From Bdellovibrio sp. (GTDB lineage Bacteria; Bdellovibrionota; Bdellovibrionia; Bdellovibrionales; Bdellovibrionaceae), in NCBI GenBank assembly GCA_036676395.1, contig JAKFCY010000003.1, positions 320,001 through 384,000 on the forward strand: DNA of 64,000 nt, in the 5' to 3' direction. Position 1 is the stretch's first letter, and every line of letters starts with the position of its first letter. The notes under the pieces are model-generated. The model did not search any database and was not told where the DNA came from. It worked only from the letters and a program-made list of their open reading frames with translations. The translations under genes and the position numbers were made by a program. This document shows positions 4,521 through 30,628 of this stretch, one piece after another.

Positions 4521-4533
4521 TAAGGAATTAGAT

Positions 4534-5061
4534 ATGTATTTTGAAGCAGAACTAAAAGATAAAAAATATAAAGTCGATGTTCACGAAGAACGTCATTCTT
4601 GGAAGGTCTCTTTACAACAAGATGGCCAGGACTGGCAGCACTACGATATTTCTAAAACTGATTTTCAGCATGCTGAAGAGTATGTGAGCTTTCTATTTGA
4701 TGGAAAGTCATACCTTATCGACGTGCTCGGACAAGACACTGAATACACAGTATTCATTCGTAATTCGTTTCGTACGATCAAAATTTTCAATGATGAAATG
4801 TTATTACATGAATCATTAAAAAAAGGCGGCGGCGCTGGATCAAACATTGAATTAAAAGCTGGTATGCCAGGTAAAGTGATTGAAATCTTTGTTAAAGAAG
4901 GTGAAATCGTTAAGGCTGGTAAACCATTGTTAATTATGGAAGCCATGAAAATGGAAAATGAAATGCGTGCATCCAGCGATGTTAAGATCAAACAGATCTG
5001 CATCAAGCAAGGCGACTCGGTCGAAAACGGAGCTGTCTTAATTAGATTCGAAAAACCATAA
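4534..5061 (+). CDS. biotin carboxyl carrier protein
   Basis: EAMKMEN biotinylation motif; in operon with pccB/accC. Confidence 0.92.
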   Translation: MYFEAELKDKKYKVDVHEERHSWKVSLQQDGQDWQHYDISKTDFQHAEEYVSFLFDGKSYLIDVLGQDTEYTVFIRNSFRTIKIFNDEMLLHESLKKGGGAGSNIELKAGMPGKVIEIFVKEGEIVKAGKPLLIMEAMKMENEMRASSDVKIKQICIKQGDSVENGAVLIRFEKP

Positions 5062-5063
5062 AT

Positions 5064-5094
5064 AAAAAAAGCTCCTTAACCGGAGCTTTTTTTT
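5064..5094. terminator. bidirectional intrinsic terminator
   Basis: A7-GCTCC-ttaacc-GGAGC-T8 between convergent genes. Confidence 0.85.
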
Positions 5095-5118
5095 GCTTTA
5101 AATTTGAAAATCTAAAAA

Positions 5119-5868
5119 CTATAAAGCTGAAAAATTACCTAAACCATCGATATGGTATGAATAAGACTGTGTCTCTTTTTTCAAGATTGTAGAAACCGTC
5201 CAATTAATATTTATAATCATACCAGCTAAAGGATTTGTTGAAGTTCCTTTATTATATACTGATTCAACTGCAGCTTGTACGTTGAATGTGTATAGGTAAG
5301 CTGTTTTAAATTCTTGTGGCTCTACCGACACATAACCAATGTATTTACCTTGGCCTTTATAGCTGCCATTAGTTAGATAAATGATTTTGTAAACTAATTT
5401 AGCCACTTCGACATTGTATAAATTTTTATACGTAATTTCGTAGTATTTAGATTGTGGGTTTTTCCAACCTTCTAACTGTTGCCAGGCTGTAATATTTTGT
5501 GGAACCGCAGACGCTTTTGCCATCTTTTGATAGTTTGCTACTGGTTTTCCTTTTTCTAAAACATTCCAGATTTTTGTACCTATATTAATGATTTTATCGA
5601 CAATGATTTCGACTTGATTCAATTGCCCGATCACTTGATCAAACGGCCCACCAACGCCCAGATCAGCTTCAATAGCTTCACGTTGCAGTGCTGCTTGTTC
5701 TATTTTAAATCGGTTTTTCTTTTGGTATTTTTCGGTGACATCGCGAACTTCGACGTTAAGCGGCGTCAATTGATCCATCATCTCTTGCGAGATGTCGCGT
5801 GGATCAGCGGCGTTAGCTAATATCGGCATTGCAAGACTTGCGAGAACAATAATCGTTAAAAACTTCAT
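5119..5868 (-). CDS. secreted hypothetical protein
   Basis: Likely start ATG at 5868 (MKFLTIIVLASLAMPILANA signal peptide) with GGGGGAAG RBS, shorter than the ORF-track call; no recognised family. Confidence 0.7.
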   Translation of the reverse strand: MKFLTIIVLASLAMPILANAADPRDISQEMMDQLTPLNVEVRDVTEKYQKKNRFKIEQAALQREAIEADLGVGGPFDQVIGQLNQVEIIVDKIINIGTKIWNVLEKGKPVANYQKMAKASAVPQNITAWQQLEGWKNPQSKYYEITYKNLYNVEVAKLVYKIIYLTNGSYKGQGKYIGYVSVEPQEFKTAYLYTFNVQAAVESVYNKGTSTNPLAGMIININWTVSTILKKETQSYSYHIDGLGNFSAL

Positions 5869-8930: not shown

Positions 8931-9538
8931 ATCTTTTTTAGTAATTCTTCTTTTTTAGCTGTGTATTCAGCTTCTGAAAGGGCGCCTGATTGATATAGCT
9001 TGTGTAGGTCTTCGATAACTTTTGACACATCTGCTGATTGTGAAGAAGACACCGTAGATGTTGTCGTGTTCACTGAACTTGCCGCATTTGAAACTTCTGC
9101 TGAATCACCAGCTAAGCGATTAAAAATAACTTTAACTTCAGCTAACCAAACTTGAAAATAATTTAAATCTGGCGCGTCTTGGTTGACCACAACACTTTCA
9201 GCAATCATATCGTGGAGTGTTTGGCGTCTAGCCGTAAATAAGTTCATTAAATAACCAATACCCAAAACAAAACCAGATAAAATACTGCAAAAATATCTAA
9301 TGTAAGATTGTTTTAATGTTAAACGTTCACCCGTTTCAGATAAAACAACCATTCTCATCATGGCTTTTCCAGGTGTGCCTTTTAACGGTGATGCTTCAAA
9401 AACCGGTTTATATAATAAGCCAAGAACAAGCCCGCCGACATAAGGAACTAATGTTCCTAAGATAGCCGCTGGAATTAACATAATTAATGCATCAATAACT
9501 GTGGCCATAAAACGTCGCCAAAAACCTGAATAAACCAT
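8927..9538 (-). CDS. RDD family membrane protein with C-terminal SHOCT domain
   Basis: YSGFWRRFMATVID, GTPGK, RQTLHDMIA; C-terminal LHKLYQSGALSEAEYTAKKEELL. Confidence 0.85.
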   Translation of the reverse strand: MVYSGFWRRFMATVIDALIMLIPAAILGTLVPYVGGLVLGLLYKPVFEASPLKGTPGKAMMRMVVLSETGERLTLKQSYIRYFCSILSGFVLGIGYLMNLFTARRQTLHDMIAESVVVNQDAPDLNYFQVWLAEVKVIFNRLAGDSAEVSNAASSVNTTTSTVSSSQSADVSKVIEDLHKLYQSGALSEAEYTAKKEELLKKI

Positions 9539-9548
9539 TTAAATCTCC

Positions 9549-10334
9549 TTAGTTCTCAAAACTCTCTGTTAACGCTTTTTTCTTTTCAAAAAAGCCAACA
9601 ATTACAATTGATATTTCATACATCACCCAAAGAGGTACCATAAGTAAAATCATACTTAAAGCATCTGGCGGGGCAACAACCGCAGAAACAGCGGTGATAG
9701 CGACTACTGCATATTTCTTTTTTTCTTTTAAAAATCTTTGCGAAACCAGACCGACCATTCCCAAGAACGTGATCACGACAGGCATTTCAAAAGTTAATCC
9801 AAACACTACGGCAGTTTGAGTGAAAAATCCAAGATAGTGGTCAATCGTAATCATTGGTTTATCGACATCGCCACCAAAGGTCATTAAAAATTTAAAGGCC
9901 ATTGGCAAGACCACGAAATAACTAAAAGCAACGCCTAAGCAAAACTGCAGTGTTCCGAAAAAAATAAAGCCTGTCGCCATTTTTCTTTCATTGCGGTAAA
10001 GGGCTGGCGCAATGAATTTCCAAAGTTGATATAGCCATAACGGAGCAGATAAAACTAATCCCGCAACAAAGGCGATTTTAATATGCGCCATAAATTTATC
10101 AATGGGCCCAGTATAAACTAAGCCGCCGCTTGGTAAATACGGTTGAATGGGCTTACGAATAACATCAAAAAGTTTTTCGCTGAATCCCCATGCCAAGCAA
10201 GTTCCAAAAAAAATAGCGTACGCTGCGCGTGTTAAGCGAAAACGTAATTCTCCCAGATGTTCAATCAGAGACATGTTTTTTTCTTCTTCGGTAGCAGCTG
10301 CTGTTTTAGGTTCTGGATTAGGATTTGGATTCAT
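9549..10334 (-). CDS. tatC: twin-arginine translocase TatC
   Basis: MSLIEHLGELRFRL, YQLWKFIAPALY, FEMPV, PPDALSM. Confidence 0.95.
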   Translation of the reverse strand: MNPNPNPEPKTAAATEEEKNMSLIEHLGELRFRLTRAAYAIFFGTCLAWGFSEKLFDVIRKPIQPYLPSGGLVYTGPIDKFMAHIKIAFVAGLVLSAPLWLYQLWKFIAPALYRNERKMATGFIFFGTLQFCLGVAFSYFVVLPMAFKFLMTFGGDVDKPMITIDHYLGFFTQTAVVFGLTFEMPVVITFLGMVGLVSQRFLKEKKKYAVVAITAVSAVVAPPDALSMILLMVPLWVMYEISIVIVGFFEKKKALTESFEN

Positions 10335-17826: not shown

Positions 17827-19292
17827 TTAAAAAATTAAGTTTAGCTGCTGCCGCAGCCATCGTATTTCATGGCTGCTCAAGCACTCCATCTATTGAAACA
17901 CGTCACAAAACGATACCTTCAAAAAAAAATGAATACGTCAAAGTCGAAAAAAGCTCTACACAGGCACCTACTTCGATTTACGCTCCTGCACCGGTAATTG
18001 CTGCGGCAACACCGCCACCAGAAATAGTTACAGCTCCTCCGGCAGTGGTCATTCCCCCAGTGCAAAATTTTAATTTAGACGAAGAAAAAACCGACAAACC
18101 CAGATCGACAGTAAGTTATGATTCTGACGCGCAAAAAATTGGAGTTATTCTTCCGATCACTGGCAAAAATGCCAGCTTAGGTCAACGCACTTTAAATGCT
18201 ATTCGCTTAGGTCTTGGCCTTGACGATAAAAATCCTTCATTTTCAATTCACATATACGATAGCCAAAGTAATCCCGATGTTGCGGCTCAGGGCGTAGAAA
18301 AACTTTTACGTGATGATCATGTCATTGCAGTTTTGGGTGGTTTAAGCGCCAAAGAAGCCCAAAATATTTCAGCTAAGGCTGAGTTTTTTCAGGTTCCATT
18401 TTTTTCGTTCTCACAAAAATCAGGTCTAACAGATTCGACCGAATACACTTTTAGAAATTCTGTAACCCCTGAAATGCAAGTAGCAAGGCTTCTGCAACAC
18501 GCTTTTAAAAACATTAATGCGAAACGTTTTGCCATCCTTTACCCGAATGATGCTTATGGAGTTGAATTTGCCAACAAATATTGGGATTTGGTTTTAGCTG
18601 GCGGCGGAGAAGTTGTAGCCGCTCAAGCTTATGACCCGAAAGATACAAATTTAAATATTTACGTGCAAAAACTAGTCGGCACTTATTACACCGATGCACG
18701 CTCTGAAGAGTTCAAAGCTCGTCAAAAAGAAATCGCCGAAAAAAAGAAAAAACAAAAAGAAACAGAACCTGCAAAGAAAAAAAATACTCGTGAACATGAA
18801 GCACAAGAAAATATTTTACCTGCAATAGTTGATTTCGATGTCTTGTTTGTGCCTGATAGTGGAAAAGCTTTAGGTCAAATCATGGCTTTTATGAAAAATA
18901 ATGATGTCGCGCAAATGACTTACCTGGGCACTAACTTGTGGAATACTCCGGATTTGTTTCGCCGTGTTGGAACCAACACCAGCAGCGTATTTTTTGTTGA
19001 TTCTACATTTACTCCTGAAGAACAAAAAAAATCTGACTTTCACGAGAAATATTTCGCTAAGCATGAAGAAGATCCAACTATTGTTGAAGCTCAAGTGTAC
19101 GAAGCAGCTAAAATATTACGCGATATCATTGGTAACAGCTCTATTAGTCGCAGTTCGTTAGCCTACCAGTTAGGTATCTTAGGCCGCAAAAGCGGCGCCT
19201 ACAGCGAAATACGTATGAATAACAATCATGAAATTGAACGCCCATTGCATATCTTTAGCTTGACCGAAGGGTCTATTCAGAAAACAGAATAG
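17823..19292 (+). CDS. LppC/LpoA-like lipoprotein (periplasmic binding-protein fold; putative PBP activator)
   Basis: Lipobox FHGC, Pro-rich linker, [29 protein letters not shown]. Confidence 0.75.
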
Positions 19293-19445
19293 ACTTTAGT
19301 CCATAATATCCACATTATAAGAATTTTTTGCGGCATTTTTAACCTGCCGCTAACCGTTTATTCCCCCTACCGCATCCAATGTCCAAGAACTAGCACAATA
19401 GTCTAGTCCTAAAAAATGCATAGAGCATGGTGGAGGGGTATTCAG

Positions 19446-19838
19446 ATGAAAAAGGATTTTTTATCAGAACAAACAATTCAGGTATGTAGAACAAAACTTT
19501 TAGATCTTAAAAGCCAGTTTTTGAATCAAGCAAAGACGATGGCTGCTAATTTCAATATGGTTGATAAATCACGCGGCGACGAAAGTGATCTGTCTGCAGC
19601 CCACCAAGAAGAGCATAATTTTTTAATCGCCCAAACACGCATGAAAGCTCAGCTAGTAGAAATAGAAATGGCCCTGAGCCGCATTGAGAGCGGTAACTAC
19701 GGCATCTGTGAAGAAACTGATGAGTTAATTGAAACAGAGCGCCTATTGGCTATTCCATGGACACGCCTGAGTATAGAAGGTGCAGAAATCCGTGAGTCGC
19801 AAACAAAAAAAGCAGGCAAAGGCTATCTTGCTTTTTGA
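19446..19838 (+). CDS. DksA/TraR-family RNAP-binding factor, single-Cys (probably Zn-free) type
   Basis: Coiled-coil tip GDESDLS; AL.RIE.G.YGICEETDELI..ERLLAIPWTRLSIEG; ATG at 19446 after GGAGG. Confidence 0.85.
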   Translation: MKKDFLSEQTIQVCRTKLLDLKSQFLNQAKTMAANFNMVDKSRGDESDLSAAHQEEHNFLIAQTRMKAQLVEIEMALSRIESGNYGICEETDELIETERLLAIPWTRLSIEGAEIRESQTKKAGKGYLAF

Positions 19839-20013
19839 TTCTACAAATTACAGAAATCGTTTAAGATTCTGCGATCCTAATGCTTTAGCGCAGCAATGAA
19901 AATCAAAGTGTCGCAGTGTTTTTTGATGACAGAAATCTGTCTTAAGATAATTATCCCCCTCGATTCGGAACTATTCAACATGTCAGCTGACGTTGGTCAG
20001 TGAGGGGGATTTG

Positions 20014-20409
20014 GTGAAAAAAACCGAGAATTCAGAAACATTAATTATGTCGCCAGAACTGACTATCATCAGAGATTCATTACTATTGCAAAAAAGCGAA
20101 ATTTTAAATCGTGATAACGAATTTAAATTAGCGCAATTAGATGTAGCGAAACTTTCAGATGAAGGTGATCAGACTGCGCAAGAACAACAAAACAATATTT
20201 CAATTCAGCTGCACGAACGCGAGAGAATGTCTCTGGTGCACATTGAAAAAACTCTTTCAAAATTTGCTACTGGTACCTACGGTGAATGCGAATCTTGTGG
20301 TGATGACATCACGATCAAGCGTTTACAAGCTAGACCTTTAACTCCTTTTTGCATCAATTGCATGGAAGAGCACGAAGAGCAGTCGCATCACTCTGGACTA
20401 ATCCAATAA
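20014..20409 (+). CDS. DksA/TraR-family factor, C4 zinc-finger type
   Basis: SDEGDQTA tip; YGECESCG..RLQARP..FCINC; GTG at 20014 after GAGGGGG. Confidence 0.85.
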   Translation: MKKTENSETLIMSPELTIIRDSLLLQKSEILNRDNEFKLAQLDVAKLSDEGDQTAQEQQNNISIQLHERERMSLVHIEKTLSKFATGTYGECESCGDDITIKRLQARPLTPFCINCMEEHEEQSHHSGLIQ

Positions 20410-20584
20410 GCGGTCGTTTAATTCCAGCCTTTAGTAACTAAGAAAACAGTATGTTTTCTCATGGAATGAGACCTGCTGACATGGATGTCAGTCTTGTTTT
20501 TGACAATTTCTTTAAATCCAGACTTAAATTCATTTAAGCCGCTCCATTTTGCTCCGATTAGGTTTGTAAGAAACAGGAGCCGAC

Positions 20585-23005
20585 ATGACATTTGACAATC
20601 AACCAGTTGAAGTACCGCAAACTCTACCGATGTTACCAGTAAGAGATATCGTTGTATTCCCATACATGATCATCCCTTTATTTGTTGGCAGAGAATCTTC
20701 TATCAGATCAGTTGAAGATGCTTTAGCTAAAAATCGCCTTATCTTTTTAGCATCGCAAAAAGATATCGCTGAAGAAAATCCTACGCCAGACACAATCTAC
20801 AAAGTTGGTACTGTCGCAAAAATTATGCGCATGAGAAAACTTTCTGATGGCCGTGTAAAAATCCTGATTCAAGGTGAAGCGAAAGCGCAAATCACTTCTT
20901 TCACAAAAACAACTGGCAGCTATGAAGTAGCTATCGAAAAAATCGAAGACAAAGGCACGACTTCAACTCCTGCTGAAATCGAAGCTTTAATTCGCACAGC
21001 GAAAGAGTCGATCGAAAAAATCATCGCTCTTGGTAAAGCTTTATCTCCTGATATCTTATTAGTATTAGATGATGTGACTGATCCAGGTCGTATCGCAGAT
21101 CTTATCGCAAGCAACTTGGGCGTAAAAGTTCAAGAAGCGCAAAAAGTTCTAGAAACAGTAGACGCAAAAGAACGCCTCTCCCTAGTGTGCACAATCTTAG
21201 CTGCTGAATTAGAAGTTTTACAGGCGCAAGCAAAATTACGCGGTAACTCTCGTGATGACCAACACAAAAATCAAAGAGAAAACTTTTTACGCGATCAAAT
21301 GAAAGCTATAAAATCTGAACTTGGTGAAGCTGGTCAGCAAGATTCAAAAGCTGAAGAGATGGATGAACTACGCGCTAAACTTATGGCGTGCGGAATGCCA
21401 GAACCAGTTCAATCTGAAGCTTTAAAACAATTAACCCGTTTAGAGCGAATGCATCCGGATGCTTCTGAAGCAACTATGGTTCGTACATACTTAGACTGGA
21501 TGGTTGATCTTCCGTGGAGCAAACAAACTGAAGATATCCATGATTTAAAACATGCAATGCAAGTTTTAGATGATGATCACTATGAATTACAAAAAGCTAA
21601 AGACCGTGTAATGGAATTTTTAGCTGTAAGAAAGTTAAAAACGACAATGAAGGGTCCAATCCTTTGTTTCTCTGGTCCTCCGGGCGTAGGTAAAACTTCG
21701 CTAGGTCGCTCAATTGCAAAAGCAATGGGTCGTGAATACTTCCGTATCGCACTTGGCGGCGTAAAAGACGAAGCTGAGATTCGTGGTCACAGAAGAACAT
21801 ACGTAGGAGCAATGCCAGGTAAAATCGTGCAAGCTTTACGTCAATGTAAAACTAAAAATCCGGTTATCGTGTTAGATGAGATCGATAAAATGGCTTCAGA
21901 TTTCAGAGGTGATCCAGCTTCTGCAATGTTAGAGGTGTTAGATCCAGAACAAAACACAACTTTCCGTGATAACTATTTAAATGTAGATTTCGATTTATCG
22001 AAAGTTCTATTCATCGCAACAGCAAACGTGGTTGAAAACATTCCGCCAGCTTTACGCGATCGTATGGAAATGATCTACATCCCTGGTTACACTGAAAATG
22101 ATAAATTATTTATTACTAAAAAACATTTGATTAGCAGACAAATGGAAGCCAACGGAGTTACATCAGATAATATTAAATTTACTGATGAAGGTATCAAATT
22201 CTTAATCGCAGGATACACACGCGAAGCCGGATTACGTAACCTTGAAAGAGAAGTTGGTTCTGTTTGCCGCAAGGTTGCTAAAAAAGTTGTGATGAATGAA
22301 TCAAACTTTGTTGAAGTGAATGAAGTAACAGTACCAGAATTACTTGGTCCTCCACGTTTCTTACGTGATGAAAGAATGCTTGAGCCATCTGTTGGTGTTG
22401 TTCAAGGTCTTGCTTGGACTCAAGCTGGTGGTGAAGTACTTTTAATCGAAGCACTTAAAATGAAAGGTAAAGGCAGTTTAATGCTTACCGGACAATTAGG
22501 TGATGTGATGAAAGAGTCTGCTCACGCAGCGATGTCTTATGCTCGTGCTCATATGGACGAACTAGGTATCGATCAAGAAATGTTTGAAAAATTTGATATT
22601 CACGTGCATTTACCTGCAGGTGCAATTCCGAAAGATGGTCCTTCTGCCGGTATCACGTTAACTACAGCCTTGGTCAGCTTGTTAACTGGAACACCAATCA
22701 GAAATGACATCGCTATGACTGGCGAAGTGACTTTACAAGGTCGCGTCTTACCTGTCGGCGGTATCCGTGAAAAGTGCTTAGCGGCACTTAACTTAGGAAT
22801 CACTAACGTGATCATCCCTATGGCTAACGGAAAAGATCTTGAAGACATCCCACAAATTTTCAAAGAGAAGATGAATTTCATCTTAGCAGAAAATTTAGAT
22901 GAAGTTTTTGCAGTAGCTTTCGAGAAATCAGAGCGCTTCTCAAAAACTAAAACCGGAGCCAACAAATCTCCGAAAAAAGGCAAAGCTACATCAGCGGCGG
23001 CTTAG
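20585..23005 (+). CDS. lon: ATP-dependent protease La (Lon)
   Basis: LPVRDIVVFP, GPPGVGKTS, DEAEIRGHRRTYVGAMPG, PKDGPSAG catalytic Ser. Confidence 0.97.
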   Translation: MTFDNQPVEVPQTLPMLPVRDIVVFPYMIIPLFVGRESSIRSVEDALAKNRLIFLASQKDIAEENPTPDTIYKVGTVAKIMRMRKLSDGRVKILIQGEAKAQITSFTKTTGSYEVAIEKIEDKGTTSTPAEIEALIRTAKESIEKIIALGKALSPDILLVLDDVTDPGRIADLIASNLGVKVQEAQKVLETVDAKERLSLVCTILAAELEVLQAQAKLRGNSRDDQHKNQRENFLRDQMKAIKSELGEAGQQDSKAEEMDELRAKLMACGMPEPVQSEALKQLTRLERMHPDASEATMVRTYLDWMVDLPWSKQTEDIHDLKHAMQVLDDDHYELQKAKDRVMEFLAVRKLKTTMKGPILCFSGPPGVGKTSLGRSIAKAMGREYFRIALGGVKDEAEIRGHRRTYVGAMPGKIVQALRQCKTKNPVIVLDEIDKMASDFRGDPASAMLEVLDPEQNTTFRDNYLNVDFDLSKVLFIATANVVENIPPALRDRMEMIYIPGYTENDKLFITKKHLISRQMEANGVTSDNIKFTDEGIKFLIAGYTREAGLRNLEREVGSVCRKVAKKVVMNESNFVEVNEVTVPELLGPPRFLRDERMLEPSVGVVQGLAWTQAGGEVLLIEALKMKGKGSLMLTGQLGDVMKESAHAAMSYARAHMDELGIDQEMFEKFDIHVHLPAGAIPKDGPSAGITLTTALVSLLTGTPIRNDIAMTGEVTLQGRVLPVGGIREKCLAALNLGITNVIIPMANGKDLEDIPQIFKEKMNFILAENLDEVFAVAFEKSERFSKTKTGANKSPKKGKATSAAA

Positions 23006-23030
23006 TTTATAAAATTATAATGTTCAAACG

Positions 23031-23063
23031 AAAAGGCTCAGGTTATTACCCTGGGCTTTTTTT
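23031..23063 (+). terminator. intrinsic terminator after lon (possibly bidirectional)
   Basis: AAAA-GGCTCAGG-ttattac-CCTGGGCT followed by a T run. Confidence 0.8.
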
Positions 23064-23079
23064 CTTTTACGCAAATTTG

Positions 23080-23328
23080 TTACCCTTTTTTAGTTTCCCT
23101 AATCAAGTCACGAATTAAAACCTTCTTACCTTTAAGCTTCGTCAGCCCGTCCGCAATTTGCTCTAGCGCCAGCAATGTTGGGTTCGCCCCTTCTTTTTTA
23201 TAAGCATAAAGCTGTGTGTACACGACACCAATTTGATTGGCCAAATCAATAATCGAATGCTCTCCTAAAAGCTCTTCAAATCTTAACTGTGTTTTGGGTT
23301 TTTTATCTGTGCTCAATTTTGACTTCAC
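23080..23328 (-). CDS. XRE/Cro-type helix-turn-helix regulator
   Basis: SIIDLANQIGVVYTQLYAYKKEGANPTLLALEQIADGL matches the XRE HTH pattern; GTG start. Confidence 0.8.
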   Translation of the reverse strand: MKSKLSTDKKPKTQLRFEELLGEHSIIDLANQIGVVYTQLYAYKKEGANPTLLALEQIADGLTKLKGKKVLIRDLIRETKKG

Positions 23329-23338
23329 GCTTAATCTG

Positions 23339-23388
23339 AATATATGTTTAAAATTATATTTGTTATACTATAACTTTAAACATATATT
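23339..23388. promoter_or_regulatory. 20-bp inverted repeat operator overlapping divergent sigma70-like promoters
   Basis: AATATATGTTTAAAATTATA-N10-TATAACTTTAAACATATATT (19/20 match). Plus strand has extended -10 TGtTATACT at 23361-23369; minus strand has TTGCAA-N17-TATAGT at 23395-23367. Confidence 0.75.
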
Positions 23389-23409
23389 ATTGCAAGCCGA
23401 GGAAAAAGC

Positions 23410-23832
23410 ATGAATAACAATGAAAAGTTTTCTAAATCAAAAGATATGATTCTGAGCATTAAGCCTCCTTATGCAAACTTAATTGTTGATGGCGTGAAGA
23501 CGATTGAATTAAGACGTCGCTTTCCAGAAAACCTTCCTCAAGGCACTAAAATATATGTTTATTCAACATCTCCCCAACAGGTCGTGATTGGAGAATGTGA
23601 GATTAAAGAAATCATTAAGAGGCCACTTGCTACATTGTGGTCAGCCGCCGCTATCGAGGCGATGATTTCTAAAAAAGATTTTGACGACTATTTCACTGGC
23701 TTAGAAGAGGGATATGGGGTCCGCGTCTGGAAATTTAAACGGTACGAAAAGCCTAAAAGCTTAACATCTTACTTAGGAAGTAAGGCAACTGCTCCACAGT
23801 CCTATAGATACGTACCTGAGATTGAGGCGTAA
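23410..23832 (+). CDS. ASCH/PUA-like domain protein
   Basis: ILSIKPPYANLIVDGVKTIELRRR (GxKxxExR), IYVYSTSP..VIGE, FDDYF.G, APQSYRY. Confidence 0.88.
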   Translation: MNNNEKFSKSKDMILSIKPPYANLIVDGVKTIELRRRFPENLPQGTKIYVYSTSPQQVVIGECEIKEIIKRPLATLWSAAAIEAMISKKDFDDYFTGLEEGYGVRVWKFKRYEKPKSLTSYLGSKATAPQSYRYVPEIEA

Positions 23833-23839
23833 AATATAA

Positions 23840-25651
23840 ATGAATATTAGCCTGTTGATAGATACGAATGTCGCTATCCAGCTCGAAGAAGCAGGTACCG
23901 ACGGCGAAATTAAGGGATCATTTGCCCTATTACATTCCCAGGTGCTTAAGCATAAAATATCAGTACTTATCCATCCTATATCTGTAGAGGATGTAAAAAA
24001 TGATAAAAATGAGGCTCGTAAAAAAACTACATTATCACGCCTCAATAAGTATCCTTTTTTGCAGTCGCCTCCGACGCCAGTAGGAAACCAGTTAGAGGAA
24101 CTATTTGGCGGTCTTTCAAAGACAAATGATGTTGTAGATGCGAATATTCTCTTTGCTGTCTATAAAAACTGTGTCACTTACCTAGTTACAGAAGATCTTG
24201 GTCTACACAAAAGAGCTAAAAATTCGGGATTGGATGACCGTGTTCTTTCTGTGGCCGAAGCTTTAGATTGTATTAATCGGACATACGAACCATCAGCGGT
24301 GCACTTCCCAGCCATAAGAGAAGAATATACATATAATATCGACATAAATGATCCAATTTTTGATTCTCTAAAAGAAGATTATGACGAATTTGTTCAATGG
24401 TATCAAAAAAAGTGTTGTGAAAAGCAAAGAAAGGCTTGGATTATCGAAGCAGATAATCGTCTTGCGGGCATTTGTATTTATAAGCATGACGATACACAGG
24501 AACACAGTGGTATTGATCTACCATCAATGAAACTAGCTACGTTTAAAGTTTCCGATGATTTCAAAGGTGCTAAATATGGTGAGCTTCTTTTGAAAATGGC
24601 GTTAGGTTATGCCTATAAAAATGGAATAAAAACAATTTGGGTTACTGCGCGGCCTAAGCAAATAGTATTAATTCAGTTTCTTAAAGATTTTGGTTTTAGT
24701 GCGCATTCTGAACTCGCCGGCGAGGATATGATTTTTTATAAGCAGTTGTTCGTGCCGAACGGAACTCAGTCAATGCCACCTTTAGAATTTCACATTAAAT
24801 TTAGCCCCCACTACCTTGATCATAAGCATATCAATAAGTACGCAATCCCGATTAAACCAAAATATCATGATTTATTGTTTCCGGAAATATCTCCGCAAAT
24901 ATCCTTGGGCACGGGTGTTCCCGGCAATACGATTAAAAAAGTTTATATTTCTCAGTCAAAAATTAATGAATTAGCAATTGGATCATTGATTTATTTCTAC
25001 CGTTCATCGCCAGAACAATATTTAACCACAATCGCTGTTGTTGAACGATGCAGAAGAATGTCGGATTTAACTGCTATTGCAAGTGCAATTGGGAAAAGAT
25101 CAGTTTATTCCTCAAAAGAAATCGAAGAGATGGTTGCAGAAAACAAAGAAATACTTATTATAAATTTTAGACTAATTGGGCATTTTAGAAAATTTATTAC
25201 ATTAAAAGAATTGGTTTCTTCTAATATTTTTAGTGCTGCACCTCAGTCTATTACTGGTCTATCTGAAGATGTCTATACTAAACTTAAAGATTTTTCTCCA
25301 GTCGCACGCCATCCATTCGATATTGAAATGAAACTTAGCCCGGAGCCATTTGCAGTAACTATTTCTGGGCAAAAAACTTTAGAAGTAAGAATACATGATG
25401 AGCGCCGAAAATATTTAAAGCCCGGCCAAATAATTCGTTTTGTAAATAGCGAAAACGGTAAAGAGGAACTGTTTGCAACAGTTATAAGTATTCGACTCTA
25501 TTCAAGTTTAGATCAGTTAGTACAACAAGAAGATATCAGAAAAACCGGTGGATTATATACTGATCCAAACGATTGGTTAGAAAAACTTAAAAAATATTAT
25601 CCTGACGGTGGCGAGGGTATGGCAATTGAAATTACCAAGCTAAATTTCTGA
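23840..25651 (+). CDS. PIN-GNAT-EVE/PUA-like-ASCH multidomain protein
   Basis: PIN: LLIDTNV, SVED, NDVVDANIL, LVTED. GNAT: KLATFKVSDDFKGAKYGELLL..FLKDFGF. PUA/EVE-like: IPIKPKYHDLLFPE..GNTIKKVY..GSLIYFYRS..APQSI. C-terminal ASCH: MKLSPEPF..ISGQKTLEVRIHDERR..LKPGQIIRF. Confidence 0.82.
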   Translation: MNISLLIDTNVAIQLEEAGTDGEIKGSFALLHSQVLKHKISVLIHPISVEDVKNDKNEARKKTTLSRLNKYPFLQSPPTPVGNQLEELFGGLSKTNDVVDANILFAVYKNCVTYLVTEDLGLHKRAKNSGLDDRVLSVAEALDCINRTYEPSAVHFPAIREEYTYNIDINDPIFDSLKEDYDEFVQWYQKKCCEKQRKAWIIEADNRLAGICIYKHDDTQEHSGIDLPSMKLATFKVSDDFKGAKYGELLLKMALGYAYKNGIKTIWVTARPKQIVLIQFLKDFGFSAHSELAGEDMIFYKQLFVPNGTQSMPPLEFHIKFSPHYLDHKHINKYAIPIKPKYHDLLFPEISPQISLGTGVPGNTIKKVYISQSKINELAIGSLIYFYRSSPEQYLTTIAVVERCRRMSDLTAIASAIGKRSVYSSKEIEEMVAENKEILIINFRLIGHFRKFITLKELVSSNIFSAAPQSITGLSEDVYTKLKDFSPVARHPFDIEMKLSPEPFAVTISGQKTLEVRIHDERRKYLKPGQIIRFVNSENGKEELFATVISIRLYSSLDQLVQQEDIRKTGGLYTDPNDWLEKLKKYYPDGGEGMAIEITKLNF

Positions 25652-25879
25652 TAGCATCGATTATCTAAATCAAAACGGAACTTATGCTGCCTTTTAATTT
25701 ATAAATGTTGTTAATTCGAGTAAACAACTCAGCGTAAAAACATTGAGCTTTTTACAAGGTGTGGTTCCAGTGTAAAACCACTTATCATTTCGATTTCAAT
25801 TAGTAGTTAGTGCGTTTTCAATTACAAAAATTATTTTTAAAAATTATGGTTTTTCGAATGCATCGTTTATAGATGCGCC

Positions 25880-27085
25880 ATGCGCTCAATATCAGCACTC
25901 TTAATTTTTTTATCTCTTCCCGCTTTCGCTCAATCAGACTTTTCTTTTAAACAAAGATATGTTGGTGAATTTCAATTTATTCAAGAAGATAAATTTAAGA
26001 CGGTAAATAATCTTACGCCCTACCAGCGTAAATCTTTTGATCTAAAAGCCATCGAAGCTGAATACGAAATTCAGTTAAATCCTAATAATAAATTCGAATT
26101 CGAAGTTGAATATGAACATGGCGGTGTGGGCTCTGCTGTTGAGTTTGATAATTTCGAAGAATTCGGTGAGTTCGAAACCGAAGTTGAAAAAGGCGGAGAA
26201 GTTGTTGTCTCTGAAGCTTTTCTCTTAAAAAAGCTTTCACCAAAAACAGAATTATATATAGGTAAGTCTCCAGTAGGGATCACGCTGAATAATGCGATGA
26301 ATTCTCCGCTTATGTATTCTTCGAATGAGGCTTCGCAGTTAGAAGCGCGCATTGTTCCGCAAGAGTGGAACGAAATGGGCCTGCAAACTAAAACACGTCT
26401 TGGCGACTGGAGTATCTACGCCGGTATCGTGAGCGGTTTAAATTCTGAATTTTTTCGTAAGTACAATTGGGTTGGCGGCGGATACCAAAAACAATTCGAA
26501 AATATCAACGCCGATCAATTAGCCTACACGGCTGGTCTTGAATGGGGTGATGTGATTTGGGGCCGCGGGATCAGCGTTCATTATTATGAAGGTGATACAC
26601 AAAAAAACCGTTACAAACTAGATAAACTGACTGTTCCAGCTACTGTGCGCATCTACACCGCGATGGCTCAGTGGAAATTTTTTGATCGCGTAGGAATCGT
26701 TACTGAGCATATCCGAGGCACGTTGCAAAACTCTGAATCTGTTGCTTTAGCTAATGCTACTTTAAGTGGTGTGGCTAAACCAAAAAGCTTTGCCGCGCTT
26801 GGATCACAAGCAGCACTTCAGATGTATCAATTAAATGTAGATGTAACAGACACGTTAAATATTTTTAGTCAGTACGAACACGTAAATACTTTTATGCAGG
26901 TTGAAGGAACGATCGCAAAAGACCCCCGTTATGATGTGATTCAGAATGGTTATGGTTTCGCTTACAAGCTGGATGAAATCACGCATATCAAAGCTCATTA
27001 TTATAAAGAAAAAACAAAATTAGAAGCGCTTCCGGAAACTACGCACTTTGTGCTGAGCTTTAATCTGGATACCGCTGAATTTTAA
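25880..27085 (+). CDS. outer-membrane beta-barrel/porin heading the iron-uptake operon
   Basis: Signal peptide; EVEYEHGG..GGEV..EA..P..WNEMG motifs seen in imelysin-associated porins; C-terminal Phe. Confidence 0.7.
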   Translation: MRSISALLIFLSLPAFAQSDFSFKQRYVGEFQFIQEDKFKTVNNLTPYQRKSFDLKAIEAEYEIQLNPNNKFEFEVEYEHGGVGSAVEFDNFEEFGEFETEVEKGGEVVVSEAFLLKKLSPKTELYIGKSPVGITLNNAMNSPLMYSSNEASQLEARIVPQEWNEMGLQTKTRLGDWSIYAGIVSGLNSEFFRKYNWVGGGYQKQFENINADQLAYTAGLEWGDVIWGRGISVHYYEGDTQKNRYKLDKLTVPATVRIYTAMAQWKFFDRVGIVTEHIRGTLQNSESVALANATLSGVAKPKSFAALGSQAALQMYQLNVDVTDTLNIFSQYEHVNTFMQVEGTIAKDPRYDVIQNGYGFAYKLDEITHIKAHYYKEKTKLEALPETTHFVLSFNLDTAEF

Positions 27086-27098
27086 CTAAGGAGAAGAA

Positions 27099-28184
27099 AT
27101 GAAAATCATGAACCTAGTGCTTAGCACTCTATTATTCGGTGCTGTTGCATCAGCCGGAACACTTGAAAAACAAGTGATCGAAAACGTTTCTAAAAACGTT
27201 ATTCTGCAAACTTATAAAGATCTTTCTGATCGTTCAGCAGACTTATTAACTGCTGTTAAACAATTAGAAGGCAACCGCACGCAAGCAAATTTATTAAACG
27301 CACAAAATGCTTGGGTTGCTGCTCGTGCCCCATGGGAAGCTTCTGAATCTTTTTTATACGGCCCAGTTGATTCTTTAGGTATTGATCCAATGATCGACAC
27401 TTGGCCTTTAAGCCGCATCGATTTAGATTCTGTTTTACATTCTGGTAATACAATCAATTCTGATTTCGTTAGAAACTTGGGTGTAAACTTACAGGGTTTT
27501 CACACATTAGAATATTTATTATTCGGTGATGGCATTCATACTAACACAAAAGAAGTTTCAAGCTTTACGCAAGCGCAATTTGATTACTTAATCGCTACTG
27601 CGGTTTTACAAGCTGAATACACTCATAAATTACATTACGCTTGGACTACTCAAGCTGATCCAGATGACGCTTCTCAACCAGGCTTTATCGATGTCATCTC
27701 TAAACCAGGCTTCGACAATCCAATTTATTCTTCTGAACAAGCTGTTATGTTTGAATTCGTCAATGGTATCTTAGGCATTTTGGACGAAGTGGCTAACGGT
27801 AAAATGTCTGATCCATTGGGCGGCGATATCGCGCATGCTAATGTTGAGTTAGTTGAATCTCCGTACTCTTGGAATTCATTATTAGATTTCGAAGACAACA
27901 TCCGCAGCGTTTACAACGTTTACACAGGCTCTTACGGCGGCAGCAAAAAAGGCCCTGGTCTTAAGGAAGTTATTGCGCAAACTAACCCTGAATTAGCAAA
28001 TCGTGTTGAAGCAAGAATTCTACAAGCTATGGGTAAAATCAAAGCTATTGCTGGCGACAACAACACACCTTTCAATAAAGCAATTTTAGATGCTCAGGGC
28101 CGTGTTTTAACAACTGAGGCGATCAATGACTTAAATGGTTTATTCCAATTAGTTGAGAGCGAAGTATTACCAATTTTTCAATAA
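27099..28184 (+). CDS. imelysin / peptidase M75 family iron-regulated protein (IrpA/EfeO-C-like)
   Basis: AW.AAR.PWE.SE.F.YGP, DTWP, GFHTLEY (HxxE), ESPYS.NSL.DF.DNI. Confidence 0.9.
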   Translation: MKIMNLVLSTLLFGAVASAGTLEKQVIENVSKNVILQTYKDLSDRSADLLTAVKQLEGNRTQANLLNAQNAWVAARAPWEASESFLYGPVDSLGIDPMIDTWPLSRIDLDSVLHSGNTINSDFVRNLGVNLQGFHTLEYLLFGDGIHTNTKEVSSFTQAQFDYLIATAVLQAEYTHKLHYAWTTQADPDDASQPGFIDVISKPGFDNPIYSSEQAVMFEFVNGILGILDEVANGKMSDPLGGDIAHANVELVESPYSWNSLLDFEDNIRSVYNVYTGSYGGSKKGPGLKEVIAQTNPELANRVEARILQAMGKIKAIAGDNNTPFNKAILDAQGRVLTTEAINDLNGLFQLVESEVLPIFQ

Positions 28185-28195
28185 TCAGGATTTAT

Positions 28196-29680
28196 ATGAA
28201 GATTTCTTTGTTCTTAACATTTATTTTCTTAAGTTTAACTTCTCAAGCTGAAATAATTTTTGATGATAGCTTTGTTAGGCAAAGAAATCTGGGTGGTGAT
28301 GGTACATATGTTGCCAACTTCGGCACTACTGTTTCATTTAAACAACCGGTGACAACCATGCCGCCAGAATTACAGGAAAAACACATTGTGGGCGATGGCT
28401 TATTCGAAAAAAACTTTTCTGATGATCCTACCCGTTCAGATTATGGATTAGGTCCTGCTTACAATAATATTAGCTGCGCCAGCTGTCATATCCGTGACGG
28501 CCGCGGTTCTTTGCCTGTTATCTCTGCCAATAATGCGTGGACAAAGCTTGGCCAAAACGAAGCTATTTTTCTTCGTATTAGTGTTGAGTCTTACGTTTCT
28601 AAAAATCTGCACGGCGAACCGACTGCTGTTCCAGGTTACTCAACCCAATTATTTCACCTTGGCAGTTATCATTTACGCCAAAATTCACCAAACACAGGCC
28701 AAGCCGAAGTTTGGATGAAATATGAATACTCAACTTTTACTTATCCCGATGGACAAGTTGTTAAAATTAAAAAACCTATTTTTCAAATTAGAAACCCTTA
28801 CGATTTATCAACTGATGAATCAGGAAATTCAACAAGCCGTCTGTTTCAAGATGATGTTCGCACAAGCCCGCGCATGACTCCGCCCATGATCGGTTTAGGT
28901 TTATTAGAAGCTATCGAACAAGATGATATTATCGCCTTAGCTAATCGCGATTTATCAGCCTGGGGTGTGCATGGGCGACCAAACTGGGTTTACGATATTG
29001 AAAAACAAAAAAATAATTTTGTCGATGTTTATAGCCTAGGGCGTTTCGGCTTAAAGGCAAATACACCTTCGGTGTTACACCAAGCCCTGGGGGCTTTTCG
29101 CGGTGACATGGGCGTGACAAATTCATTTTTTCCTGATGAAAGTATCGCCGGAACACCATTGATCGAAAAAATTCTTCCGTCGTTAAAAAAAGAAGTAAAT
29201 ATCAATGATGAAGATGCTCTAGACACTGTATTTTATTCGCAAACTTTAGCCGTGCCTTCCCGTCGCAAAGAATACTTAGAAGCTGACATCGTTGCCGGCG
29301 GTAAGAATTTCAAAAATGTTGGCTGTACAAATTGCCATCAACCTGAATTCATAACTGGCAAACATTCTATCGAAGCTTTAAGTTTTCAAAGAATTGCTCC
29401 ATACACAGATTTATTATTGCACGACATGGGCGAAGGCTTAGCTGATAACCGTCGCGATTTCCAGGCCTCTGGCCGCGATTGGAAAACTCGCGCACTATGG
29501 GGAATCGGCTTAACTAAAACAATCAATGCCCGCGGTGGCTTTTTACATGATGGCCGCGCAGCTACTATCGAAGAAGCCATTCTATGGCATGGCGGCGAAG
29601 CACAAATCAGTCGTGATAAATTCGCAAGTCTGCCAGCTAATGAGCGTGCTCAAGTTATTAAATTTATCAACTCACTTTAG
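28196..29680 (+). CDS. di-haem oxidoreductase (DHOR/DUF1111, putative peroxidase)
   Basis: GLGP.YN..SCASCH, GCTNCH, GLGLLEAI, GRFGLKA, YTDLLLHDMG, LHDGRA.TIEEAILWHGGEA. Confidence 0.92.
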   Translation: MKISLFLTFIFLSLTSQAEIIFDDSFVRQRNLGGDGTYVANFGTTVSFKQPVTTMPPELQEKHIVGDGLFEKNFSDDPTRSDYGLGPAYNNISCASCHIRDGRGSLPVISANNAWTKLGQNEAIFLRISVESYVSKNLHGEPTAVPGYSTQLFHLGSYHLRQNSPNTGQAEVWMKYEYSTFTYPDGQVVKIKKPIFQIRNPYDLSTDESGNSTSRLFQDDVRTSPRMTPPMIGLGLLEAIEQDDIIALANRDLSAWGVHGRPNWVYDIEKQKNNFVDVYSLGRFGLKANTPSVLHQALGAFRGDMGVTNSFFPDESIAGTPLIEKILPSLKKEVNINDEDALDTVFYSQTLAVPSRRKEYLEADIVAGGKNFKNVGCTNCHQPEFITGKHSIEALSFQRIAPYTDLLLHDMGEGLADNRRDFQASGRDWKTRALWGIGLTKTINARGGFLHDGRAATIEEAILWHGGEAQISRDKFASLPANERAQVIKFINSL

Positions 29681-29690
29681 AGGTTAGAAA

Positions 29691-29999
29691 ATGTTAAGCG
29701 TTTTATTATTGTTTTCAAATTTAGCTTTCGCAGATGATTTAGTTTTTAAGATCGAACTTAAAAACCGCACGATGGTGCCAAATGAAATCGTTGTGGCGCC
29801 AAACACTCCTTTTACCATCGAAGTTGTTAATACAGATAACACAGCTGAAGAATTTGAAAGTAACAGTTTAAAAATTGAAAAAATTATTCCACCAAAACGT
29901 TCGGCAAAATTTAAAGTTAAACCACTAGCCGCCGGCGAATACGAAATCTTTGGCGAATTTCATATGGATACTTGCCAAGGTAAGGTCATAGTAAAATGA
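29691..29999 (+). CDS. cupredoxin-domain protein (FtrB / EfeO N-terminal-like)
   Basis: Signal peptide; EEFES.SL.IEK, PL..GEY..FGEFH motifs. Confidence 0.85.
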   Translation: MLSVLLLFSNLAFADDLVFKIELKNRTMVPNEIVVAPNTPFTIEVVNTDNTAEEFESNSLKIEKIIPPKRSAKFKVKPLAAGEYEIFGEFHMDTCQGKVIVK

Positions 30000-30628
30000 A
30001 CTGGGCGGCATTCTCAATTGTTTTGCGCGAAAGCTTAGAAGCTTTATTAATCATTGGTATTTTAACATCGGTATTAAAAAAAGATCAGAACACGACTAAG
30101 AAACACTGGATGTTTTTAATTTTCGGCGTACTTGCAGGCGTTTTTGTAAGTTTAGCTTTAGGAATGTCGATCATGTTCTTGCCAGACGCAGTTCCAGAAT
30201 CTGCAATGAACTATATTGATGTTGGATTTCCATTAGTTGCGGGTTTAATGATTATTCATGTTATGTGGTGGATGCATAAAAATGCCAAGACAGTTAAATC
30301 TGACTTAACTGAAAAAGTAGAAAATGCTTTAAGCAAACAAAGCCTTATCAGCTTATTGTTAATCAGTTTTTTGGCCGTGGCCCGTGAAGGTTTAGAAACT
30401 GTTTTATTCTTAAGCGGTGAGCTCATCGAAGCAACTTCAGACAAATTATTAAATCTAGGTGGTCAAATCGCTTTGGCTGTTATCGTTTCTTACGTCATTT
30501 ATTTTATTTTGCAGAAGTCTTTAGGAAGTTTACATTTCAAATGGTTTTTCAGAGTAACGAACGTCTTGTTATTTGCAGCGGCAGTTCAATTACTTTATAC
30601 GGCCTATAATAAATATCAGTATATCTAA
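29996..30628 (+). CDS. FTR1-family iron permease (short form)
   Basis: Two RExxE motifs (LRESLEA, AREGLET); hydrophobic helices; ends soon after FFRVTNVLL. Confidence 0.88.
   Translation: MNWAAFSIVLRESLEALLIIGILTSVLKKDQNTTKKHWMFLIFGVLAGVFVSLALGMSIMFLPDAVPESAMNYIDVGFPLVAGLMIIHVMWWMHKNAKTVKSDLTEKVENALSKQSLISLLLISFLAVAREGLETVLFLSGELIEATSDKLLNLGGQIALAVIVSYVIYFILQKSLGSLHFKWFFRVTNVLLFAAAVQLLYTAYNKYQYI

Follow-up and report, generated by a model that had tools for sequence, protein, structure and literature searches.

This report concerns three genes at positions 23080 to 25651 of a 64,000-nucleotide stretch of a Bdellovibrio sp. genome (contig JAKFCY010000003.1, positions 320,001 to 384,000), referred to here as the window. 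They encode a small protein with a probable helix-turn-helix (HTH), a stand-alone ASCH protein (ASCH1), and a 603-residue protein in which PIN, GNAT, and EVE-like domains are followed by a second ASCH domain (ASCH2). An earlier note, made from the sequence alone, had placed this cassette between the lon terminator and a group of iron-related genes and had read it as a candidate toxin or defence system. The three open reading frames (ORFs) and their surroundings are as that note described and, judged by profile models, the cassette is a member of PDC-M11, a candidate family that has already been catalogued. It is an insertion missing from close relatives. The locus contains the following features.

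23080..23328, minus strand: small HTH-like gene, 82 amino acids (aa), probable repressor, divergent from the operon and inside the inserted block (ORF list)
23410..23832, plus strand: ASCH1, 140 aa, PDC-M11B, ZmASCH-like (ORF list, PADLOC, Pfam)
23840..25651, plus strand: PIN-GNAT-EVE-ASCH2 protein, 603 aa, PDC-M11A plus an extra domain (ORF list, PADLOC, AlphaFold model)
23006..25734, no strand: inserted accessory block of exactly three genes, ~2.7 kb (empty-site comparison)
23030..23062, plus strand: terminator-like hairpin 3' of lon, at the left edge of the block (13-pair stem, then a T run)
23840..24295, plus strand: predicted PIN domain, residues 1-152 (VapC21 fold match; invariant acidic residues)
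24296..24754, plus strand: GNAT domain, residues 153-305 (Pfam, Foldseek, and fold match; K245, G247, and E248 invariant)
24827..25291, plus strand: predicted EVE/PUA-like barrel, residues ~330-484 (fold match to ZmASCH 5guq_A; Pfam EVE in homologues)
25328..25648, plus strand: ASCH2 domain, residues 497-603, PH0355-type, preceded by a linker of residues 485-496 (profile against the PDB; PHROG)
23339..23388, no strand: candidate operator in the divergent promoter region of 81 bp, made up of a 20-nt inverted repeat around a 10-nt spacer

Family membership and insertion site

PADLOC assigns the 603-residue protein to PDC-M11A (PDLC04421, 2.6e-139; residues 4-479 align to positions 2-477 of the 486-position model) and ASCH1 to PDC-M11B (PDLC04425, 5.8e-34). 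PDC-M11 calls for adjacent genes on the same strand, and the two genes lie on the plus strand with the larger one starting at 23840, 7 nt past the ASCH1 stop at 23832. NCBIfam gave no useful name for the cassette proteins. The PDC systems were derived by 'guilt-by-embedding', i.e., from genes found within BREX, DISARM, and type I restriction-modification (RM) loci, and the main text of that work mentions neither ASCH nor GNAT (10.1101/2024.01.29.577857). Bell et al. 2020, in their account of these operons, report that (PIN)-GNAT-EVE proteins nearly always adjoin an ASCH gene, often have an AAA_17 ATPase (P-loop) partner, and lie close to type I RM and other defence systems, and that HTH-ASCH fusions occur in alphaproteobacteria; the operon is credited there to Iyer et al. 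2013, and none of the modules is given as experimentally characterised as of that account (PMC7641849). The earlier note's account of this literature is right. The window holds the parts of such an operon, namely a PIN fold with an acidic site, a central GNAT fold, and a neighbouring ASCH gene; as the note had observed, the ORF list shows no kinase or AAA_17 gene in the cassette. Since the family is already described and catalogued, the novelty of the cassette is lower than the note held, and its unusual points come down to the rare fusion of an extra ASCH and the split HTH. A literature search from 2021 on for functional studies (ASCH, GNAT, EVE domain, phage defense) found none.

In the sister genome G018, 39 bp stand in place of window positions 23006-25734, between flanks that are 96.6% (window 18000-23005) and 93.1% (25735-30000) identical. 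This empty site spans the HTH gene, which is therefore part of the inserted block. Searches of 40 further genomes, 24 from the genus and 16 from the order (completeness at least 90% for 30 of them), did not find the large protein, and the cassette is single-copy in its own genome. The comparison of relatives at the lon locus, which the earlier note had proposed, does not show the universal conservation of a core locus. The GC content of the cassette is 0.34-0.36 versus about 0.39-0.42 in the flanks, and its accessory, horizontally acquired nature is supported.

The same site downstream of lon carries a different cargo in G016, whose flanks are 86% and 78% identical. This cargo (L085 8509-9612) consists of an 89-aa minus-strand ORF and a 253-aa LexA/CI-like protein with HTH_3 and Peptidase_S24 domains; thus, the site behaves as a small insertion hotspot. 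No integrase or transposase is present among the ORFs of the window's block. A flanking direct repeat, target-site duplication, or att site was considered and found unsupported, the best junction alignment being an 8-mer matched by 408 of 1000 shuffles, and a three-way junction alignment shows terminator-like similarity only.

Public metagenome contigs also cover the locus. Runs X1 and X3 contain contigs with the whole stretch at 0 differences, and may be the source of the window DNA. The joint at which ASCH2 is fused is also spanned, with 0 differences, by record 9 of run X4 (24757-25536) and by record 16 of run X6 (25201-25357), the latter from a third study. Another X6 contig joins 22984 to 25760 with 2775 bases skipped and represents an empty-site relative in the same sample.

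Upstream of the cassette is lon (20585-23005; Pfam Lon_C, 4e-87), followed by the hairpin. Downstream are a 401-aa protein without a Pfam match, an imelysin gene (27099-28184; Pfam, 2.6e-61), and a di-haem oxidoreductase gene (28196-29680; 5.4e-176). A gene for a DksA/TraR-type zinc-finger protein lies just 5' of lon (window 19993-20409; 3.7e-11).

Domains of the two co-directional proteins

Structure prediction with AlphaFold (AF2), searched by Foldseek and by fold comparison, recovered PIN, GNAT, and PUA-like folds for the 603-residue protein, in the order that the earlier note had read from the sequence. The predicted local distance difference test (pLDDT) score of the whole model, for which an alignment of 37 family members was used, is 81.6, high over residues 1-485 and low over residues 489-603. 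Pfam identifies GNAT directly (4.9e-8, residues 168-286), and residues 155-304 of the model superpose on 1y9k (Z 16.4, root-mean-square deviation (rmsd) 1.9, 133 aligned). The best structural matches of this domain are generic proteins (PaiA, Ard1, RimI), and its Foldseek matches include AtaT (6ajm, 2.6e-5) and TacT3 (7ak9, 3.2e-5). The earlier note had claimed an acetyl-CoA motif; in the motif A region, K245, G247, and E248 do not vary among 37 sequences, and this region was read as a K/R-G-x-K-x-G-E variant.

Neither PIN nor EVE gave a Pfam match on the window's 603-residue protein; over 37 aligned family members, Pfam found GNAT in 37, EVE in 12, PIN_3 in 9, and PIN_12 in 3. When the whole 603-residue model was searched, GNAT matches crowded out PIN, and residues 1-152 were hence folded separately (pLDDT 93.3). 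PIN-domain proteins fill the first 39 rows of the search with this model, which superposes on VapC21 (5sv2; Z 10.9, rmsd 4.0, 127 aligned) and, at Z 10.8, on VapC15. The earlier note had pointed to retained acidic residues; D8, T9, N10, E16, D97, D100, and D119 are invariant in the 37 sequences.

The third domain had been called EVE/PUA-like. Residues 330-490 of the model superpose on the Zymomonas mobilis protein ZmASCH (5guq_A; Z 14.7, rmsd 3.0, 143 aligned), with Foldseek in agreement; thus, residues ~330-484 are predicted to form a PUA-like barrel of the EVE/ASCH type. A weak PDC-M11B match covers residues 382-483 (8.6e-4), and P337, I338, P348, E349, and R420 are invariant in the 37 sequences. 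The PUA-like part of the earlier label holds; in subtype the barrel may be EVE or ASCH, the Pfam EVE matches being to homologues.

The second ASCH domain (SGQKTLEVR), likewise claimed from sequence, falls below the Pfam cut-off (ASCH, 0.0048, residues 498-589) and is recovered by a four-sequence profile, which matches PH0355 (2z0t, 1.3e-21), PF0455 (1s04, 4.9e-19), and PF0469 (1xne, 4.9e-15) in the PDB; the octapeptide G, K, E, and R are retained. ASCH2 occupies the C-terminal ~107 residues, and this part sets the window protein apart. A homologue search with the large protein gave 903 matches at E<=0.001, and none of the best 120 (354-521 aa, 56-83% query coverage) reaches the C-terminal 120 residues. 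Similarly, ASCH2 is reached by 0 of 36 aligned homologues, and query coverage stays below 80% in all 33 plasmid homologues.

In three of 79 related loci (L001, L020, and L043; see below), the ASCH2 homologue is a separate neighbouring gene. That of L001 is co-directional (116 aa, 3e-21), with a divergent XRE HTH gene upstream; in L020 it lies directly upstream of ASCH1, and in L043 it lies downstream of the core gene, with its ATG 11 nt past the core stop. After the 12-residue linker, the window's ASCH2 opens with a retained Met, which the alignment pairs with the first Met of the stand-alone relatives; by this comparison of sequences, the fusion looks as if two genes in an L043-like order had been read through.

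When the C-terminal domain was used by itself in a word-indexed search, two candidates came up, neither of which scored. This blank is a sensitivity limit, since the full HMMER search with the four-sequence profile found 4729 representatives at E<=0.001, mostly of 110-120 aa. Pfam was run on 20 of the best 150 of these 4729 (5 short, 15 long); all 20 have an ASCH match above cut-off and many also match DUF3850, and none of the 20 has the PIN-GNAT-EVE architecture. Among the long relatives, ASCH is fused to TIR-DUF6273, a TRAM-tRNA(U5) methyltransferase, GNAT (Acetyltransf_3), or Macro, and other fusions involve a DNA-alkylation-repair domain, EamA, and a trypsin-like domain. The TIR-DUF6273, GNAT, and Macro fusions of the PH0355-type ASCH (P0236, P0146, and P0168, respectively) are suggestive of functions in conflict systems and in mark removal.

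ASCH1 is a stand-alone ASCH protein, as proposed (Pfam, 2.5e-8), and a sequence homologue of ZmASCH (PDB 5guq, 1.8e-15 over residues 10-102). Over 25 sequences, G28, K30, E33, R35, Y51, P55, W77, P129, and Q130 never vary and S131 hardly does; an alignment read by eye pairs Y51 with ZmASCH Tyr47 and S131 with Ser128. Its octapeptide (G28, K30, E33, R35), like that of ASCH2, is of GKER type and not of the G-K-[T/S]-R type defined for YqfB-like amidohydrolases of N4-acetylcytidine (ac4C) (10.64898/2026.02.27.708502), and YqfB is absent among the PDB sequence matches (E<=1) of ASCH1 and of ASCH2. According to the same 2026 preprint, 19 of 19 ASCH proteins, including ZmASCH and six Pyrococcus proteins, stripped ac4C from E. 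coli tRNA in vitro. The words GNAT, toxin, defense, and phage do not occur in its text, so the link to an acetyltransferase partner is one that we infer here. TmcA (PF13718) and TmcAL (PF05636) gave no match in the cassette's own genome (99.3% complete), while control genomes gave matches; should the ASCH proteins act on ac4C-like marks, the cassette GNAT would therefore be the obvious writer. A third ASCH gene of the genome (159 aa, 1.5e-7) lies on contig C2 (L089 3936-4868), directly 3' of a gene for a FUR-family regulator; neither GNAT nor PIN occurs close by, and this ASCH gene was rejected as unrelated to the system.

The HTH gene, the candidate operator, and related loci

The XRE HTH label given earlier to the 82-residue protein finds weak support: its best Pfam match is at 0.094 and the NCBIfam match, RstR, at 0.0071, and by Atlas features it falls among HTH_3/HTH_26 clusters, as a lead only (score 0.94 on 179 shared features). 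It has only eight close homologues (69-91% identity). One relative was found in 51 other genomes of the genus, in G023 (61% identity), on contig C18 (L088 2686-10922). There it adjoins a Phage_integrase-family gene (7535-8827) within an apparent integrative element. The element also has one ORF of 148 aa, one that is resolvase-like, and, upstream, a cluster formed by an XRE-like ORF together with three larger ORFs (3003-5543).

In other forms, fused or divergent, an HTH recurs beside the system. Among 11 long ASCH ORFs scanned, 8 have HTH_3/HTH_31 fused to ASCH1, and L001 and L011 have separate divergent XRE HTH genes; that of L001 was compared with the window HTH and shows no similarity (E 5.6). 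Type II antitoxins are usually made of an HTH together with a domain that binds the toxin.

The arms of the inverted repeat (23339-23358 and 23369-23388) are complementary at 19 of 20 positions across the spacer. A value of 20 was reached by 0 of 2000 dinucleotide shuffles, for which the maximum was 14, and the two arms are the only word matches in the window, versus 0.03 expected. Upstream of the G023 homologue of the HTH gene there is a related word, TATAACTTTAAA. The repeat overlaps promoter-like hexamers in both directions, the count of such hexamers being not above chance.

A scan with one genome per species returned 258 relatives, of which 80 were kept and 79 have the whole core gene. 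Some are duplicates among records of metagenome-assembled genomes (L002/L003 have identical coordinates; L027/L029 and L057/L061-L063 look the same), so that the locus counts are not independent. By a distance rule, 77 of the 79 have an ASCH1 gene next to the core gene (56 upstream, 21 downstream); L065 also has one, seen by eye and overlapped by an over-long ORF call, and L004 has none. An AAA_17-like gene lies within 1.5 kb in 28 of the 79, with none among the closest loci, L001-L011.

Relatives of the cassette have restriction, abortive-infection (Abi), and TIR genes as neighbours and occur on mobile elements. Pfam analysis of 131 flanking ORFs in 12 related loci found Eco57I/MmeI-type or SfiI RM genes (type IIG/II) directly adjoining L005, L006, L008, and L009; AbiE or AbiT near L004, L010, and L011; TIR effectors near L008 and L010; integrases near L001, L002, L014, and L020; and a type IV secretion system (T4SS) coupling protein near L020. 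Homologues occur on 33 plasmid records, 11 of them conjugative. Phage families are matched as well: ASCH1 by PHROG 3136 (3.4e-35), PIN-GNAT-EVE by PHROG 10674 (4e-95), GNAT-EVE at 1e-32, and the ASCH2 part by PHROG 19935 (7.3e-14).

About 2 kb 3' of the closest full-length homologue, L001 contains a reverse transcriptase gene (RVT_1, 9.8e-17; 9294-10304) between HTH, response-regulator, and HRDC genes, which may be a retron or a defence gene of the defence reverse transcriptase (DRT) type.

Proposed mechanism, alternatives, and known systems

Prediction of the complex between ASCH1 and the 603-residue protein supports docking of ASCH1 on the GNAT domain. Over three runs the score was 0.80, 0.00, and 0.74, with a median of 0.74; none of three controls exceeded 0.00, and the pLDDT of each partner was at least 76. 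The confident interface pairs GNAT residues 272-320 (plus 86, 124, 128, and 224) with ASCH1 residues 18-30, 74-90, and 107-109.

The reading that we favour, and to which we give an even chance, is that the cassette belongs to the PDC-M11/(PIN)-GNAT-EVE + ASCH family of candidate defence systems, was acquired horizontally, regulates itself, and acts as a toxin-antitoxin (TA)-like or abortive-infection module aimed at RNA, probably tRNA. The GNAT domain would acetylate a nucleic-acid target, either the amine of an aminoacyl-tRNA, as TacT and AtaT do, or a base amine, leaving an ac4C-like mark. The EVE-like barrel would place the enzyme on a modified base, and the PIN domain would cut RNA. ASCH1 bound to GNAT would keep the system off by blocking it, by removing acetyl marks, or by both, much as DarG acts against DarT, and the fused ASCH2 would supply a further eraser or reader, acting in cis. 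Repression of the shared promoter would come from the divergent HTH protein through the 20-nt inverted repeat, and infection would upset the balance of ASCH1 and GNAT, releasing acetylation and RNA cleavage. The antitoxin role that the earlier note had suggested for the small ASCH gains indirect support from the predicted complex, from the HTH-ASCH fusions, and from the deacetylase activity of ZmASCH in vitro. Its interpretation as a whole is supported in part: the domains, the literature, and the accessory status stand, and toxicity, defence, acetylation, and RNA cleavage are predictions.

Several points weigh against this reading. The cassette stands alone between lon and the iron-related genes, outside any defence island, and we found no experiments on PDC-M11 in the literature, in which the name occurs as annotation output only. 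One of the three complex runs scored 0.00, contact agreement between runs was at least 0%, and the calibration of the mark used (116 of 157 solved complexes attained it, as did 2 of 215 mismatched pairs) is only rough here, as each partner had its own, author-made alignment. AF2 confidence is low over ASCH2, with block pLDDT means of 35-64. In ASCH1, Ser and Gln replace ZmASCH Arg50 and Lys53 (alignment read by eye). ZmASCH itself left the free ac4C nucleoside unhydrolysed, and its expression in E. coli left tRNA ac4C undiminished (10.64898/2026.02.27.708502); it was earlier reported as a Mg-dependent RNase of single-stranded RNA (PMC5615036). ASCH1 could therefore be a nuclease or a sensor instead of an eraser, and ASCH in these operons has been argued to bind modified DNA (PMC7641849). 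Homologues of the window HTH are missing from the 80 related loci, its G023 relative sits in an integrase-bearing element without a PDC-M11-type system, and the HTH may be a passenger.

The argument for DNA binding, which PMC7641849 bases on HTH-ASCH and HsdS-ASCH fusions and on proximity to type I RM, would fit a different machine: a modification-dependent sensor nuclease similar to type IV restriction, in which the three PUA-like domains (ASCH1, EVE, and ASCH2) would read modified bases of incoming phage DNA or RNA and PIN would then cut it, ASCH1 would be a specificity or sensor subunit and not an antitoxin, and GNAT would mark or regulate. The type IIG/II RM genes flanking four related loci are consistent with such a nuclease, as are the fusions of the ASCH2 family to reader- or effector-type partners such as TIR-DUF6273, and the predicted contact of ASCH1 with GNAT fits a subunit as well as an inhibitor. 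We nevertheless regard this reading as doubtful: the top structural matches of the PIN domain are all RNases (VapC, Nob1, Utp24, exosome), the G-K-E-R set is invariant in ASCH1 and kept in ASCH2, which fits catalysis over reading alone, and the invariant GNAT motif is left without a role.

A selfish addiction module that stabilises itself or the mobile DNA carrying it, with no anti-phage role, would account for the 33 plasmids and the nearby integrases, ParA/RepO, and T4SS coupling protein, and also for toxin-type PIN and GNAT domains paired with an HTH-linked partner. It is nonetheless quite unlikely. The window copy is chromosomal in a block without integrase or transposase, related loci have RM, Abi, and TIR neighbours, and PDC systems were derived from embedding in BREX, DISARM, and type I RM (10.1101/2024.01.29.577857). 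A housekeeping set for turnover of tRNA acetylation in the service of translation is scarcely credible, even though PUA and ASCH domains are commonly tied to translation and RNA modification (PMC7641849), ASCH proteins deacetylate tRNA ac4C in vitro (10.64898/2026.02.27.708502), and relatives of ASCH2 are fused to TRAM-tRNA(U5) methyltransferases. The accessory distribution is the strong argument here: the large protein was found in none of the 24 same-genus and 16 same-order genomes searched, the sister genome with a 96.6%-identical flank has a clean empty site, cassette GC is low, and the family is patchy across phyla and found on plasmids and phages.

The TA-like, RNA-directed reading also has a more specific, though unlikely, form. 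In DarTG, a nucleic-acid-modifying toxin is checked by a partner that binds the toxin and removes the mark. By analogy, an acetylation-based counterpart would have GNAT write a reversible ac4C-like mark on tRNA or other RNA, bound ASCH1 and ASCH2 erase it, the EVE-like barrel read it, and PIN cut the marked RNA when infection tips the balance. If true, tRNA deacetylation by ASCH proteins, so far known in vitro or under overexpression, would gain its first physiological role, as an immune antitoxin. A ZmASCH-homologous partner beside an acetyltransferase makes a writer/eraser hypothesis concrete and testable. The family at stake is widespread, on plasmids, prophages, and in defence islands, and catalogued as PDC-M11; within it, the locus is a compact test case with three genes, a natural empty-site sister, a candidate operator, and a natural fusion of a second ASCH.

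The cassette shares with PDC-M11 the domain order, PIN and GNAT followed by an EVE-like domain, and the adjacent co-directional ASCH gene, and differs in three respects: it adds the C-terminal PH0355-type ASCH, lacks the AAA_17 partner seen in part of the related loci, and has its HTH as a separate divergent gene, whereas some relatives have an HTH fused to ASCH1. The archaeal ASCH proteins PH0355, PF0455, and PF0469 are matched by the ASCH2 profile over nearly their full length; they are stand-alone proteins of ~110 aa deposited as hypothetical, while here the domain is fused to PIN-GNAT-EVE. ZmASCH (ZMO0922) is a sequence homologue of ASCH1 onto which the EVE-like domain also superposes, and it was studied alone, without a GNAT partner; the text of PMC5615036 contains neither 'operon' nor 'acetyltransferase'.

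The likeness to DarTG is one of proposed logic only, a works-like comparison and not membership: the cassette has no ADP-ribosyltransferase or macro domain, and its chemistry would be acetylation. With TacAT and AtaRT, the cassette shares the GNAT fold. Those systems place a ribbon-helix-helix (RHH) antitoxin gene beside a stand-alone GNAT, whereas the window GNAT is one domain of a 603-residue protein, its partner is an ASCH, and the cassette has no RHH ORF. Similarly, the predicted PIN fold is closest to VapC toxins of VapBC systems, but it is fused, and the upstream gene encodes an ASCH and not a VapB-type protein. Thus, in contrast to VapBC and TacAT/AtaRT, the window cassette joins both toxin-type domains in one chain with PUA-like domains.

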